From: Chiloscyllium plagiosum
Taxonomy: Eukaryota
Assembly: GCF_004010195.1 (NCBI RefSeq)
Contig: NC_057718.1
Span: 53,101,593 to 53,134,693 of the forward strand
Direction of reading: 5' to 3'
DNA: 33,101 nucleotides
Shown: in pieces, positions 1,903 through 27,940 of the stretch
Numbering within the stretch: the stretch's first letter is position 1
How the letters are laid out: the number at the start of each line of letters is the position of its first letter
Notes under the pieces: model-generated
What the model was told of the DNA's origin: nothing
Databases searched by the model: none
The model's input: only the letters and a program-made list of their open reading frames with translations
Translations under genes and position numbers: made by a program

Positions 1903-2139
1903 TGCAGTAGCATTAGTCCTCACCATCTGATTCTTACATATGTCCTTATACAGTACTGCAGTAACAAATCTTTCACCTATGTTCTATGATCCTGAGATAG
2001 ATAGCTTACTAACTTATCCCACTCCTCAAAGACTTCTTCATTTTTTAATCTATTTTGAGGCACCTCAAAATCCACATTATCTGGGTTTGATTCCTCATTC
2101 CACAAGAAACTAACACCTTTTTATCCAGTTCCTTCTCTT

Positions 2140-3310
2140 TAGTATAATACGGTTTCAACATGTTCACATGACATACGCAATACCTTTTTTATCTATCTGG
2201 CATCTTTACCAAATAGTCCACCTGACTCAACTTTTTCTCAATTTGATAGGGACTACTAAGCCTGGCTTTGAAAGAATCTCCTGATGCTGGTAACAATACT
2301 AACACATTATTCCCTTGGGAAAACGTTCAAGTCTCAGATCTGCCACTTCCTTCATTCTATACTCTTTAGGAACTGTTTAGCTAACTCACCTACACTATTT
2401 AATCTCTTTCTCACCTCCAATACATAATCTATGTGTGAGATCTCTGACTTTGGTCGTGTCAATTTTTCTTTAATTAATTTAAAAGGACCTCTCAGTTCAG
2501 GCCCAAATATTAACTCGAAGGGAGTAAACTGAGTAGATTTGTTTGGGGCATCTCTCATGGCAAATAATACGAATGGGATACCATTACCCCAATCATTTGG
2601 GTAAACCTGACCGTATGGTCTCAATATGGTCTTCAAGGTCTGATGCCACTCTTCTAAAGCTCCCTGGGATTCAGGATGATACACACTGGATTTAAAGTGC
2701 TGTGTACCTAAGTATCCATAACCTCCTTCAACGGTCTAGCAGTAAACTTAGACGCTTGGTCTGACTGAATCTCTCTGGGTAGCCCATACCGTGTGAAGAA
2801 AGCTACTAATTCCTCTACTACCCTTTTTGCCTTGATACTCCGTAATGGAATTGCCTCTGGAAATCTGGTAGACACACCCATCATGGTTAACAAGTACTGG
2901 TTCCCACGTTTAGTTCTTGGAAGGGGACTTACAGAATCAATTATAACCCACGTGAAAGGTTCTTCAAATGTGGGAATTGGCAACAAAGATGCTGGTTTTA
3001 TTACCGCCTGTGGCTTACCTACCATTTGACATGTATGACACATACAGCAAAAGTTAACCACATTTTTGTGCATTCTAGGTCAATAAAAATGTTTTTGTAC
3101 CTTAGCCTGAGTCTTTCATACCCCTAGGTGATCTCCTAAAGGTGGTTCATGTGCTACCCCTAACACACCTGTCTGTATGCTACTGGCAATACAATCGGAC
3201 CATTTCTCCTCTGCACTAACCTGCCATGATCTCCACTTCTGTCTTAGGATTCTATCTTTTGGATAATAACCCTCTGGAATATTCTCAGCCTCTTCTTGCT
3301 GTTGCAAGTC
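2140..3310 (-). pseudogene. Gypsy integrase (HHCC zinc finger, DDE core, GPY/F-like C-terminus), frameshifted
   Basis: AHEPPLGDHLGV, CCMCHTCQ, WVIIDSVSPLP, IQSDQASKF, YHPESQGALEEWHQTLK, TPFELIFG, CHVNMLKPY. Confidence 0.9.
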
Positions 3311-3544
3311 TCTTAGCCTCTGTCTGTTCAGGCTTTTCCTGCACCATTACATCAAACAGGGTGTCTGCAAACTGAGCCTCCATTCCTTCATCTTTCTCTT
3401 TACTTTTCACTTCGTGCTGTGACTTGTGATAATGGGATCTGGTTACTGCACAATCTGGAAAAATACCAGGATATTTCTGTTTTAACTCCTCAATTTCTTG
3501 TTTTCCTTGGGCTTCGCCACAACAAGGGGTGTCACTCCCACATA

Positions 3545-3800
3545 GGATCCTGCCAAATCATTCCCAAGAACAAACTGAATTCCTGGAACTGACACTCTGC
3601 CAATCACTCACACTGTATCTTCCCCAGTCTTGAGTTGCCACTCCAACTTGATCTTACATCGACAAACGGTAACTTTCTATCCATCTGTCCCACAAATTAC
3701 CACACTCTCAGGTAACAGATCAGAAAGAGTGCATATTTGCTTGTCTCTTACTATCAGCGACTGGTTAGAAAGTATATCTCTCAAAATTATAACTTCTTAT
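3545..3800 (-). pseudogene. Degenerate retroviral-type aspartic protease
   Basis: VIILRDILSNQSLIV (decayed LRDTG motif) and downstream QFVLGNDLAG. Confidence 0.65.
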
Positions 3801-5217
3801 CCTTTTTCCCCTGTTCTTTCTGAATAAACTTTATACACAAGGGCAAATTCTTTGTAGAGGTCAGGTACTAACTCCGTACCCAGCCCCTGCCTAGGCTGTG
3901 CACTCTCCTGCAGCTCTTCGGCTCTTCTTGGGGTCTCCTTTACTACCTTCACTAATGCCGCTGGCTTGGCTTCTTTTACCACATCTTTTCCCATGGTGCC
4001 TTTCTTTAATGACCAGCACTGTGACTTTACATGTCCCACTTTACCACAGTAGAAACACCTGAGGCCTTTCACCTCCTTTCCACCCTCTTGGGCTTCTTTT
4101 TTTATCCTGTGGCAAATTCTTACCAGTGCTCTCTACCCCTGGTTTAGTATTGTAGGATCTCCCCTTCTCCCAATTTCTATACCTCACAGGACGAAATTCT
4201 GGCCAGAAGCTTGTCTTATGCACCAACATATATTCATCTGCTAGTTCTGCTGCCATTCTCTCTTTCTGAACTTTCTGTTCCTCCACATGAATTCTTACCA
4301 TCTCTGGAAGTAAGTTTTTAAACTCCTCCTGAAGCATAATCTCTTGTAGAGCCTCAGAGGTCCTATCTATTTTCAAAGCACACACCCATCTATCAAAACG
4401 ACTATGTTTAATTATTTCAAACTAAACAAAAGTCTGACCTGTTTCTAAACCGCTGTTTATATGCTTCTGGTACCAATTCATAAGCACTTAACCGCTACAT
4501 AATCTCTTCACCCCTCCGCTGACAGTGCGGCAAATACCTCACGAGCTGTGCCTACCAGTTTAGTCTGAATTAGCATTGCCCATAAATCCTCAGATCACTC
4601 CATCTGCCCAGCCAATTTTTCAAATGAAATAAACAAGGCTTCAACATCATTCTCATCAAAATGTGGTGGAGTTTTGACATGTTTGTATATATCACTACCT
4701 TCTCTTTTAATTTCCATCTTGTTGACTTCACATTGCTGACTAAGTCGCAACTTCTCAAATTCAAATGCTCTCTCTTTTTGCTCAGCTTAGAAGCTTCTCT
4801 CTCTTTCTTTTCTCTCTCTCTCTCTTCTCTCTCTTCTCTCTCTCTTTCTCCCTCCCTTTATTCTCTCTCTCTTTTCTCAGCCAAGAAACTTCTCTCCTTC
4901 TCTTTTTCCTCTCTCTCCCCTTCTCTTTCTCTCTCCCCCTCTCTCTTTCCTTTCTCTCTCTTTGTTTATGTTCTAACTCCATTTTCCTTAATTGTAATCT
5001 AAGTTTTTCTATCTCTACTGCACTTGTCTGTTTCTCTGACACCTGTTTTTGAGTAATTCCCTTACAATTTCATCTTTACTTTTGTCCTTGATTAAACTTA
5101 ATCTAACTTATTTGCTAATTCTAAAAGTATGGCCCTATTCTTTCCTTCAAAACTTTCTTGCCAAATCTGAGAATCATCTTCAAATCCCAGAACCTCTTTA
5201 ACAATTTTAAGATCCAT
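3801..5217 (-). pseudogene. Gag polyprotein (E/R/K coiled coil, SCAN-like capsid region, CCHC zinc knuckle), frameshifted
   Basis: ATG at 5217 (MDLKIVKEVLGF), LSAYELVPEAYKQRFR, EIMLQEEFKNLLPEMVRIHVEE...AAELADEY, CFYCGKVGHVKSQC. Confidence 0.85.
4765..4960. repeat. CT-rich imperfect microsatellite inside gag
   Basis: Long (CT)n/CTT tract encoding the ERERK-rich segment on the minus strand. Confidence 0.9.
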
Positions 5218-5314
5218 CTCTCTCACTTTTAATTTAATTAACCACAAGTCGCCGAAATTAAACAAATTGCCTTACCTACATTTTATTCAAAGATCTCGGA
5301 CACTAACTTACAAG

Positions 5315-5461
5315 TGTTTAAATCTGCTGGGATTTTTCATACCCCTAAACCTACTCAAATCTGTCTAAACCAGTTCAAATCCCAAATCCAAGACCCAAAC
5401 TGTTCAAATCATGGACAAAAGCTCCCCAAACCATTTAAATCACAGTAATGAGCCCCCAGAC
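5315..5461 (-). repeat. Primer-binding site (tRNA-Pro type) plus a tandem array of degenerate PBS-like units
   Basis: Minus strand TGGGGGCTC (5458-5450) lies 3 nt after the LTR. On the + strand, 20-36 nt units read T(T/C)(C/T)AAATC...CCC(C)AAAC, resembling the tRNA-Pro 3' end GTTCAAATCCCGGACGAGCCCCCA. Confidence 0.65.
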
Positions 5462-6190
5462 TGTTATGACATTTGGTAAACCCTCCTGCTTAATTTACAC
5501 CAGCAACACAGAAAAGATTTATCCCTTGCAGTAATCTGTGAAAACCTGAGAGGCTAAGGAGTATATAAATTAAAAATTAACAACTTTATTTCTTAAAGTA
5601 TAACAGAGAATAATTAACTATTTACAACTCCTTCCTCTTGCTGTTCTTATACCTTCCTTTCTATAATACTAGTCCGATAATTCCCCCCCCCCCCCGAAAT
5701 TTAAAGGTTTACCTAAAGTTCAAGTTTTCAAAATCAGCCAGACATCAAGTCATCTCTTCCTTAGTCTTCTTTTCTTCTTCTGAGGGATTTCTGCTTCACA
5801 GGTCACTGATCATCAAGGTACCTTGAAGAAGTTTTTCTTTATGGGGGGGGGGGGGGGGGGGGTCATTTTCTACATGCAGGTGGCTTGGCAGTTCTCCTTC
5901 CAACTGTTCAGGTTTGCCTGGTCTAATACCCCCAAACCATCAAATTGTGTCATTGGCTTATAAGATTGTCAATACACTAAACTCAAACTTGATTGGAAAT
6001 TGGTATTTTTTGGGGTATAAATTAAACTGATTGGCCTATTTCAAAGTTGTTTTTGTCTCCAGGCAACCAGCTACACTAACTGCTGGACCACATGCTACAT
6101 TGTATCTTGTTGAGAACACTTGGTGCTGTCAGGTAGTTGTGCTAGCTTTTAACTTTCTTAAAGCTACAATTCACCCACATCTTCATGACA
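5462..6190 (-). mobile_element. 5' LTR (~729 bp) of the Gmr1-like element
   Basis: Inverted termini TGTTATGA / TCATGACA, minus-strand AATAAA at 5590-5585, adjacent PBS. Confidence 0.85.
5952..6034 (-). promoter_or_regulatory. Cluster of CCAAT boxes in the LTR U3 region
   Basis: ATTGG at 5952, 5992, 5999 and 6030 (CCAAT on the element strand), upstream of the LTR poly(A) signal. Confidence 0.4.
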
Positions 6191-6350
6191 CTTATACACT
6201 TAATGTCAAGATCCTAGGGAGTGTTGCTGAACAAAGAGACATTGGGAGTGCAGGTTCATAGCTCCTTGAAAGTAAAGTTGCAAGTAGATAGGATAGTGAA
6301 CAAGGCATTTATTATGCTTTCCTTGATTGGTTAGAGCATTGAGTAGAGTT
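6191..6350 (+). mobile_element. CR1 LINE, continuation of 1466-1902
   Basis: Resumes where the left part stops (YTLNVKILGSVAEQRD); the same junction is uninterrupted in the minus-strand copy at 8445-8635. Confidence 0.88.
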
Positions 6351-7358
6351 CAAAGCTTGTGAGAAGATTTGTAGCTCGGGTGCTCATTGTTGTGGTTCTG
6401 TTCGTCGAGCTGGGAATTTGTGTTGCAGACGTTTCATCCCCTGTCTAGGTGACATCCTCAGTGCTTGGGAGCCTCCTGTGAAGCGCTTCTATAATGTTTC
6501 CTCTGGCATTTATAGTGGTTTGTCTCTGCCACTTCCGGTTGTCAGTTCCAGCTGTCCGCTGCAGTAGCCGGTATTATGGGTCCTGGTCGATGTGTTTGTT
6601 GATAGAATCTGTGGATGAGTGCCATGCCTCTAGGAATTCCCTGGCTGTTCTCTGTTTGGCTTGTCCTATAATAGTAGTGTTGTCCCAGTTGAACTCATGT
6701 TACTTGTCATCTGCATGTGTGTCTACTAAGGATAGCTGCTCGTGTCGTTTCGTGGCTAGTTGGTGTTCATAGATACAGATTGTTAACTGTCTTCCTGTTT
6801 GTCCTATGTAGTGTTTTGTGCAGTCCTTGCATGGGATTTTGTATACTACGTTGGTTTTACTCATGCTGGGTATCGGGTCCATTGTCCTGGTGAGTTGTTG
6901 TCTGAGAGTGGCTGTTGGTTTATGTGCTGTTATGAGTCCTAGTGGTCATAGTAGTCTGGCTGTCAGTTCAGAAGTGTTCTTGATGTATGGTAACGTGGCT
7001 AGTCCTTTGGGTTGTGGCATGTCCTCATTCCATTGTCTTTCCCTTAGGCATCTGTTGATGAAATTGCGGGGCTATCCGTTTTTGGCGAATACATGTAGAG
7101 GTGTTCTTCTTCCTCTTTTTGTAGTTCTGATGTGCTGCAGTGTGTTGTGGCCCTTTTGAACAGTGTCTTGATGCAACTTCTTTTGTGTGTGTTGGGGTGG
7201 TTGCTTTCGTAGTTCGGGACTTGGTCTGTGTGTGTGGCTTTCCTGTATACCTTTGTGGTGAATTCTCTGTTCGGTGTTCTCTGTACCATCACGTCTAGGA
7301 ATGGGAGTTGGTTGTCCTTTTCTTCCTCTCTAGTGAATCGGATTCCTGTGAGTGTGGC
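6351..7358 (-). mobile_element. Penelope/Poseidon-type PLE, 5'-truncated (RT thumb, GIY-YIG endonuclease, pLTR)
   Basis: LPFLDVMVQR...KVYRKATHTDQ...NHPNTHKRSCIKTLFKRA, and NVVYKIPCKDCTKHYIGQTGRQL...EH (GIY-YIG). Confidence 0.9.
6425..6464 (-). ncRNA. Minimal type I hammerhead ribozyme
   Basis: Minus strand GCA-CUGAGGA-UGUCACC(UAGACA)GGGGAU-GAAAC-GUC-UGC; 3-bp stem I GCA/UGC, imperfect stem II. Confidence 0.7.
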
Positions 7359-21580: not shown

Positions 21581-22388
21581 TTTTATCCTTTATTCAATTA
21601 GTCTTCTGCTAAAGGTATGGTATAAATTTTGACAGACGTGAATTTCAGCCACTCAAAAGTAGTATCCATGTAAAAGTTAGTGCCCTAAATTTAACTTCTA
21701 AAGAGTGGTCAAAAATTATTAGAGTATTACTCGAGTATATAGGATAAGCATTTAATTCAAGTAATTAATTCTTTTTAAAAATAAAACATCTGAATTTGCA
21801 GTGTGTCTTAAAAGCATCTGTGCCCAGTTGGAGCTGTCAATCAAACTGTGAAATGGCAGCTTGCCCTCTGCAATAATGGAAGATTGTGAAATTGATCATA
21901 CAGTCCACTAATGATAACTCTCGGCTTCATGTTATCAGATAGAGCAAAATACATGGAGTACATGGAATATATGAAAATGCACTAGACAGTCCCTTTATTT
22001 TCAAAAATATAAAGTGCAGGAGTTTTAAATGCCATAACAGCTTGACATCTTTCTTTCAACAGTTGTTTTCGACAGGACTTTTTCATACTTCTAAGTTGTA
22101 TTTGACAGTTCCAATGAACTTTATAGTCCCAAATATTTGATGTAGATTTTACATAAATTCATTGTTTCTTTTAACAATCCTGAAGGGCTTCTTATCATTC
22201 CAACCCACCACATCAAGGGGCATTTGACTTCACCCAGATTCTGGGTTACTCCAAATGTCTTCTGGATTTTTCCAAAGGTGTCACAGGACAATATCCAAAG
22301 GGGTAATGTACTCTTTCAAAGGATATTCCAACTCTTCAAGTCACTGTAAAGTTAAGACCTGCTTCTCCCTGTGGTAATTTGTGCAAGA

Positions 22389-22583
22389 GTTGAAAAATGT
22401 GGTGCTGGAAAAACACAGCAGGCCAGGCAGCATCCGAGGAGCAGGAGAATCGATGTTTCAGGAAGGGCTTATGCCCGAAATGTCGATTCTCCTGCTCCTC
22501 AGATGCTGCCTGGCCTGCAGTGTTTTTCTAGCACCACATTTTTCAACTCTGGTACTCCAGCATCTGCAGTCCTCACTTTCTCT
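22389..22583 (+). mobile_element. Palindromic PLE-terminus insertion with the hammerhead CUGANGA core missing at the centre
   Basis: Inverted arms ~22386-22462 and ~22474-22550, tail 22551-22583, direct repeat TAATTTGTGCAAGA at 22375-22388 and 22584-22597. Confidence 0.9.
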
Positions 22584-23219: not shown

Positions 23220-23452
23220 TCACAAACAAAGATTGCTGGAAAGGCTCAGCAGGTCTGGCAGCATCTGAGAAGAGAAATCAGAGTTAACATTTCCGATCCA
23301 GTGACCCTTCCTCAGACCCTTTTGAGGAAGGGTCACTGGATCTGAAATGTTAACCCTGATTTCTCTCCACAGGTGCTGCCAGACCTGCTGAGCTTTTCCA
23401 GCAATTTCTGTTTTGGTTTCTGATTTATAGCATCTGCTGTTCTTTTAGTTTT
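23220..23452 (+). mobile_element. Palindromic PLE-terminus insertion, third family
   Basis: Inverted arms ~23222-23315 and ~23322-23415 with (C/U)UGAGGA-AGGGUC(ACUG)GAUC-GAAAU-GUU cores, tail to 23452, direct repeat CATTTCAGGG at 23210-23219 and 23453-23462. Confidence 0.9.
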
Positions 23453-26787: not shown

Positions 26788-27014
26788 CAGAGAGTGTGGT
26801 GCTGGAAAAGCACAGTAGGTCAGGCAGCATCCAAGGAGCGGGAGAATTGATGTTTCAGGCATAAGCCCTTCTTCAGGAATGAGCTCATTCCTGATGAAGG
26901 GCTTATGCCTGAAACTTCAATATTCCTGATCCTTGGATGCTGCCTGACCTACTGTGCTTTTCCAGCACCACATTCTCGACTCTGATCTCCAGCATCTGCA
27001 GACCTCACTTTCTT
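26788..27014 (+). mobile_element. Palindromic PLE-terminus insertion with no spacer
   Basis: Centre CAGGAATGAG|CTCATTCCTG at 26883/26884, arms ~95 bp, tail ~26981-27014, direct repeat CCACAGTAAGGT at 26776-26787 and 27015-27026; hammerhead cores at 26891 (+) and 26876 (-). Confidence 0.92.
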
Positions 27015-27711: not shown

Positions 27712-27940
27712 GAACATGTTGTATGGCAGCACCGGTGGGTGTGGAGTACATGCTGTCACTGTCCATGGAACATGTTGAATGGTAGCACCTGTGGGTGTGG
27801 AGTACATGCTGTCACTGTCCATGGAACATGTTGTATGGCAGCACCTGTGGGTGTGGAGTACATACTGTCACTGTCCATGGAACATGTTGAGTGGCAGGAC
27901 CTGTGGGTGTGGAGTACATGCTGTCACTGTCTGTGGAACA
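27712..27940. repeat. Minisatellite, 4 x 56 bp
   Basis: Units start at 27712, 27768, 27824 and 27880: GAACATGTTGxxTGGxAGxACCxGTGGGTGTGGAGTACATxCTGTCACTGTCCATG. Confidence 0.95.

Follow-up and report, generated by a model that had tools for sequence, protein, structure and literature searches.

A tandem array of tRNA-Pro primer-binding-site units behind the LTR of a decayed Gmr1-like Ty3/gypsy element

A decayed Ty3/gypsy element carries, between its 5′ LTR and gag, five tandem units related to the complement of tRNA-Pro's 3′ end. We favor, with a probability of roughly 0.55, the reading that these units are decayed copies of a module consisting of a spacer and an extended tRNA-Pro primer-binding site (PBS), added singly on the side facing the LTR when reverse transcription slipped and duplicated the module, and that probably only the LTR-adjacent copy primes. 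All positions are those of the window, the whole 33,101-nt stretch of DNA that was analyzed, which is repeat-rich and of animal type. Elsewhere in it are long near-perfect inverted repeats at 755-957, 22381-22555, 23224-23413 and 26790-26977 (arms of 82-97 nt, 0-11 nt apart, dispersed repeat ends) and a 56-nt tandem repeat at 27712-27940 (4.1 copies, 93% matches).

The host element and its five units

The array lies in a dead copy of a Gmr1-like element on the minus strand, in which the LTR (6190 to 5462) is followed by a leader of about 245 nt, a decayed gag from 5217, a protease region and an integrase extending to about 2130:

5462..6190, minus strand: 5′ LTR, about 729 bp (end 5462 from reads, end 6190 deduced)
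5432..5461, minus strand: unit 1, LTR-adjacent, 3-nt spacer and 26-nt PBS (score 25, p 0.0005)
5401..5431, minus strand: unit 2, spacer and 27-nt PBS copy with the T-loop complement intact (score 27, p 0.0005)
5372..5400, minus strand: unit 3, spacer and 25-nt PBS copy (score 23, p 0.001)
5351..5371, minus strand: unit 4, collapsed to spacer, almost no middle, and T-loop complement (score 14, p 0.022)
5315..5350, minus strand: unit 5, gag-side, with a lengthened middle (score 14, p 0.058 in the window copy)
4000..5217, minus strand: decayed gag with SCAN-like capsid and CCHC knuckle (Pfam, tblastn)
3435..4000, minus strand: decayed protease-linker region (tblastn similarity to the corresponding part of relatives' polyproteins)
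2130..3346, minus strand: decayed integrase (Pfam Integrase_H2C2, E 4.9e-14; rve, E 1.6e-6)

A first-pass annotation had placed the array behind a Gypsy LTR, and this position was borne out by 237 and 201 reads that define the LTR end at 5462 and have unrelated loose flanks (agreement 0.35-0.36). The end at 6190 was deduced from 8-bp terminal inverted repeats with one mismatch. The LTR is single and has TG/CA ends, and no second LTR was found within the window. The array had been described on the plus strand, where its letters are indeed present, but the element reads on the minus strand.

The gag region, the ATG of which was positioned from the sequence, is broken by many stops and frameshifts, and is collinear with intact relatives by tblastn; a separate gag homolog search gave no matches. 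Pfam detected SCAN (E 5.7e-5) and zf-CCHC (E 2.7e-4) in gag, the SCAN match of this decayed copy (23.3 bits) falling below the 27-bit cut-off that relatives L034, L011 and L007 exceed, and detected no protease domain in 3435..4000. The integrase follows the protease region directly, with no reverse transcriptase (RT) between gag/protease and integrase, an order collinear with the relatives. The tblastn matches of four full polyproteins stop at about 2130, and no RT was found in the window, where the copy is cut after the integrase; in the three relatives scanned as polyproteins (L034, L007 and L009) RT/RNase H lies downstream of the integrase. According to the available text of bioRxiv 10.1101/2025.03.03.638093, Gmr1-like elements combine a SCAN-like capsid with an integrase that immediately follows the protease region, and the window element was assigned to this group because, judged from its predicted domains, it appears to share both the SCAN-related capsid and the integrase placed after the protease and before RT. 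Like Gmr1-like elements, it also has a tRNA-Pro-type PBS behind the LTR.

The presence of five units between the 5′ LTR and gag was confirmed, with the boundaries first proposed. Each unit is built as a 3-nt LTR-PBS spacer, TGG or TAG, a variable middle and a T-loop complement ending at tRNA G53, and the complementarity to tRNA-Pro thus spans 24 nt, beyond the usual 18. A canonical PBS is one site of at most 18 nt behind the LTR; the position fits here, but five units and a 24-nt match with insertions were found. Unit 1, the PBS of which is 2 nt longer than the 24-nt tRNA complement, shares its layout of LTR end, spacer and TGG with 35 related loci and is likely the priming site. The motif T(T/C)(C/T)AAATC, previously ascribed to every unit, is strict in four of the five (5317, 5374, 5403 and 5434), the unit at 5351-5370 being one letter short of it, with the fitting letter at 5354 in 323 of 345 reads of run X21 (family reads, described below). 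These four copies in 147 nt compare with at most two in 5000 dinucleotide shuffles, and the rest of the window holds 11, both strands counted.

Units were scored by local alignment against the complement of tRNA-Pro's 24 terminal 3′ nucleotides, with p values from shuffles. The reference was a eukaryote-type gene, found by ARAGORN on contaminant contigs among the fetched loci, which may not be the host's; human tRNA-Pro is printed with the same 3′ end in the accessible part of PMC12217144. Eukaryote-type tRNA genes occur on short contigs of bacterial genome records (L080-L096), likely host contamination. ARAGORN found no tRNA genes in the window or in 52 related loci. The proposed tRNA-Pro identity held for units 1-3 (p≤0.001), and the five units comprise three strong, one weak (0.02) and one borderline (0.06) match. 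Control tRNAs (His, Lys and Leu) scored below Pro in units 1-3, with Leu only one point lower in unit 3 and equal to Pro in unit 4; a 'Glu' control was uninformative since it shares the Pro 3′ end.

The units had been taken for PBS derivatives rather than for one PBS beside shuffle-like sequence, and the neighbors of unit 1 did beat shuffles. Chance resemblance in a low-complexity leader is refuted for units 1-3 and next to impossible as a general explanation: taken singly, units 4 and 5 are weak matches, and unit 3 reaches 22 with tRNA-Leu, but three non-overlapping matches scoring at least 18 were reached by none of 500 shuffles, and the family majority letters at 5346, 5354, 5436 and 5442 shift units toward the PBS. 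Together with 5459, the listed majority letters at these positions bring the units closer to the PBS or to one another than they are in the window copy; 262 of 336 X21 reads, for example, carry C at 5346, giving unit 5 a PBS-like G-run.

The gradient of tRNA-likeness is not fully regular. The best CCA-end match was said to sit beside the LTR, and the longest uninterrupted one (9 nt) is in unit 1, but the best overall match is unit 2. A rise of divergence with distance from the LTR had been proposed as a test; the duplex predicted to form with the 18 final nucleotides of the tRNA does weaken roughly from unit 1 to unit 5 (-21.5, -20.0, -17.3, -4.7 and -11.1 kcal/mol), but tRNA-likeness does not fall monotonically, unit 2 exceeding unit 1 by alignment and unit 5 exceeding unit 4 in duplex strength. 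For units 4 and 5, pairing with this 18-nt stretch does not surpass that of shuffles.

Tandem Repeats Finder (TRF) did not report the array as a whole, and an Rfam scan over 4900-6400 gave three chance-level matches only. A hairpin-array reading was dropped, as one of five units folds significantly (unit 3, z -3.8) and the whole leader does not (z -0.5). A same-sense match to the tRNA-Pro D-arm (16/18 at 5337-5354, minus strand; 31 of 2000 shuffles) was judged probably due to chance because three of its matching letters are minority states in the family reads. A sixth T-loop-complement box, a 10-nt exact match, lies at 5178-5188 on the minus strand, inside the first gag codons.

Unit number and polarity in family reads

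Reads were aligned over 5120-5720 at ≥80% likeness, from two raw-read runs (X21 and X22) of organism A, which may differ from the window's species, and contigs (X5 and X6) of organisms B and C. Of the 5,689 and 5,572 aligned reads from organism A, only 39 and 30 are ≥99% alike, indicating that they come from other copies of the family; no intact member of the window's family was seen. Relative to 5288-5308, depth from the gag side to the LTR side was 1.02/0.99, 0.78/0.79, 0.64/0.65, 0.39/0.39, 0.13/0.13, 0.05/0.05 and 0.06/0.06 in the two runs (summed depths, from unit 5 to unit 1: 587/573, 450/459, 368/374, 224/225, 75/77, 28/27 and 37/34), rough fractions given that clipping near divergent sequence also lowers depth and contig depth does not equal copy number. 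By unit, relative depth was 0.78-1.02 in unit 5, 0.64-0.65 in unit 4 and 0.05 in unit 2 (over 5414-5434), and summed depth stood at about 830-980 where gag starts, about 580 immediately behind the array and 1,800-1,900 in the LTR.

Joints in the alignments gave a concordant picture. Ten of the 15 joints listed (184 in total) start at 5381-5385, just past unit 3's T-loop box, and leave out the two LTR-side units; these are 3-unit copies, in which the LTR-adjacent PBS occupies the site of unit 3. Five of the ten resume at 5448-5451, in all four runs (12 reads of X21, 6 reads of X22, and contigs of X5 and X6), and five further into the LTR. One listed joint in X6, starting at 5410, is consistent with a 4-unit copy. 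The whole array of five units is covered by X6 records 15 and 16, with two gaps each at about 82-85% identity. One X5 contig lacks unit 5 and part of unit 4. Gag-side units are therefore common to most family reads while LTR-side units vary in number, which supports the polarity that had been claimed for the array.

This variation fits either direction of change, polar growth or loss, since deletion from a 5-unit ancestor predicts the same joints. A possible but unlikely account is that the ancestor had a long array and that shorter versions arose by deletion between repeats, through template switching or DNA recombination, with the LTR-side half of the working PBS kept. The joints fuse the LTR-side half of unit 1 with the T-loop half of unit 3, as this account expects, and the 26-nt LTR-adjacent site is common to 3-unit copies and the window copy. 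Against it, long versions are rare (relative depth 0.05-0.13), the gag-side units are the most diverged from tRNA, and none of the 15 listed joints (of 184) skips an inner unit only.

The same joints bear on the suggestion that every added unit was copied afresh from the primer tRNA at the LTR, the array being a record of priming events. Besides the polarity, two features agree with it: homology with the tRNA ends sharply at G53 in units 1, 2, 3 and 5, and units 1 and 2, which differ in their middles, are no more alike than either is to the tRNA. A faithful copy would measure 24 nt, but the LTR-adjacent site is 26 nt in six of eight listed joint rows and in the window copy, 25 nt in one row and 24 nt in only one, so that it is mostly an unfaithful tRNA copy. 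With one tRNA family only, there would also be little to record. These lengths leave the claim of a priming record doubtful, and we regard fresh tRNA copying as improbable.

Repeats in related Gmr1-like families

Relatives were collected by integrase alignment (79 loci), and an LTR end followed by a tRNA-Pro-type PBS was recognized in 35 of them, a pattern that misses visible cases (including L013, L039, L075 and L076) and contigs, of which there are many, that end before the leader. These 35 loci were grouped into 28 families through a 39-row tree, with L015 and L077 outside the tree. tRNA-Pro is the primer of the Gmr1-like clade, all 18 nt being matched in 8 of the 28 families.

Most of the 28 families have one PBS, and 4 have repeats anchored on it: L005/6/7 carry a second PBS plus spacer, L004/11 about 8 15-nt units, L001/9 2.5 21-nt units, and L019 about 8 units in a loose series. 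Only L006/L007 passed the alignment test for a second full PBS, the other repeat families being called from TRF output and by eye; single threshold-level second-PBS matches occur in L003, L027 and L069/L074. The repeats of L004 (5255-5400) and L011 (805-945) are about 8 tandem 15-16-nt units made of a PBS tail, spacer-like letters and TGG. Repeats likely arose several times because unit sequences differ between families. In L006/L007 a 17-18-nt LTR-side site lies ahead of a 13-nt one, as fresh tRNA copying would predict. Elements of the same family stand in tandem, with one or two PBS copies, at L005 4188, L006 3309, and L007 594 and 6514 (one contig).

Differences in unit number were found in two unrelated families, the extra unit being LTR/PBS-proximal in both (a 16-nt unit that L011 has beyond L004, and a 35-nt unit that L006 has beyond L005), with assembly collapse a possible cause. 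Confinement of variation to the LTR side thus extends to three families. L005 is readable as derived from the L006 type, which would suit the deletion account. The window element groups (99/96) with L029, L008, L002 and L003, and its nearest relatives with a leader (L003, L008 and L029) have a single PBS, so a gain must have occurred sometime, which argues against deletion.

GAAC occurs shortly after the PBS in 5 of the 28 families against a background of 0.032 (p 0.002), a sign that tRNA position 58 may now and then be read through. By eye, the PBS middle carries small insertions in L009 and in no fewer than 7 of the 28 representative relatives; those of 2-3 nt recur in L008, L009, L014, L015, L019, L029, L042 and L061, and the sisters L001 and L009 differ by one. 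Changes between sister copies (8 pairs) are only moderately raised in the PBS zone, which counts against the slip-duplication reading, at 2.3 per 100 nt versus 0.6 downstream, the upstream figure of 2.2 being inflated by one misaligned contig end.

In the viral_contigs set, a single-protein scan and a tRNA-motif scan gave no matches, and none of 15 PBS-pattern matches, several of them chance, had a further TGGGGG within 200 nt; one of these records, L101, is the L001 record. Other tRNA-Pro-primed records, L100 and L104, show PBS complementarity 4-5 nt beyond 18.

Origin and meaning of the array

In the slip-duplication that we favor, the nascent strand would stall at the end of the tRNA copy or realign at plus-strand transfer, and re-pair through an AAC microhomology, the extended site ending in GAAC and the LTR in TAAC(A); spacer and PBS would then be copied again at the LTR side. 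Priming would be required of the copy next to the LTR alone, and older units, being tolerated, could drift, collapse or lengthen. The LTR-end/spacer/TGG pattern recurs at all five junctions, although this motif was designed after the data were seen. The junction between units 2 and 3 equals the LTR junction at 9 of 10 letters, the tenth being present at 5459 in most reads (76/95 in X21). Given these matching ends and the reproduced junction, a slip back through AAC would duplicate spacer and PBS at the LTR side. The microhomology of only 3-4 nt counts against such a slip.

Alternatively, the array may be kept by selection, its inner units serving as extra annealing boxes for the tRNA T-loop or as sites for a 22-nt tRNA-Pro 3′ fragment, acting as a decoy or rheostat; going by the letters, we consider this quite doubtful. 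Within the units, the complement of fragment nucleotides 1-7 is best preserved, with three such sites in the leader versus at most two in 3000 shuffles and one more in gag, but this seed segment has no CpG and the middle has two, so slower decay would explain its survival equally well, and seed-type sites follow trivially from PBS duplication. Inner units persist across a hundreds-fold read depth and three organism labels, and tRNA fragments are argued, in the available portion of PMC7472051, to shape PBS sequence in mouse ERVs. Set against these points are the L004/L011 repeats without a seed match, the failure of units 4 and 5 to pair with the 18-nt piece better than shuffles, the unremarkable structure of the whole leader (z -0.5), and the 24 of 28 related families without such repeats. 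A broader proposal strikes us as doubtful as well: the Gmr1-like LTR-PBS junction may be a recurrent one-ended growth point, where read-through of the primer tRNA would stack an ordered lineage record and retained T-loop boxes, under selection, would tune silencing by tRNA-Pro 3′ fragments. The array is likely a tolerated by-product of slips rather than a working device.

The window family thus differs from most of its Gmr1-like relatives in having 3-5 units and in the extension of its site to 24 nt, to which two more letters are usually added. In Ty1, extra boxes pair with the primer tRNA's T and D arms. These boxes, like the window array, are several short tRNA-complementary stretches downstream of the PBS, but they pair with different parts of the tRNA, whereas the window array repeats one part with spacer and TGG. 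A CRISPR array has constant repeats separating unrelated acquired spacers, and is polar, nested and copy-number-variable. The polar, nested and variable arrangement is shared, by analogy only; the window array has no foreign spacers and no dedicated acquisition gene, its middles being decayed tRNA-Pro complement, and those of units 1-3 align to tRNA-Pro itself.

HIV-1 offers closer parallels, as far as the available texts describe them. A partial PBS duplication of the MAL type, 23 nt long and placed immediately downstream of the PBS, is tolerated and present in 14% of isolates (PMC3185550), a PBS-derived insertion in a successful lineage as in the window family; it is one partial duplication, whereas the window family has serial whole modules including the LTR-PBS spacer, in variable number and with an age-like gradient. 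In HIV-1, m1A58 is the main plus-strand stop and position 54 the second (PMC8599865, PMC11251516), read-through of tRNA position 58 is documented (PMC8599865), and read-through with aberrant plus-strand transfer leaves tRNA inserts (PMC12657518). Complementarity or copied tRNA thus extends beyond 18 nt in both cases (PMC8599865, PMC12657518), but in HIV-1 the complementarity is conserved to position 55, or the inserts mark defective proviruses, whereas the window family, an amplified one, has it fixed and extending to 53.

This analysis adds family-wide and cross-family evidence of PBS-array polarity. By title and abstract start, no description of tandem, multiple or duplicated PBSs in retrotransposons was found in the literature, an earlier mention in the original Gmr1 paper or Repbase being possible. 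Unless it has a function, the array is a mechanistic curiosity in a dead copy. If polar gain is true, the leaders of a very abundant family would be an ordered trace of rare reverse-transcription slips, with unit order as a subfamily clock; thousands of natural copies could show how read-through of the tRNA and errors in plus-strand transfer reach fixation, and would offer a test of tRNA-fragment pressure on primer sites outside mammals.
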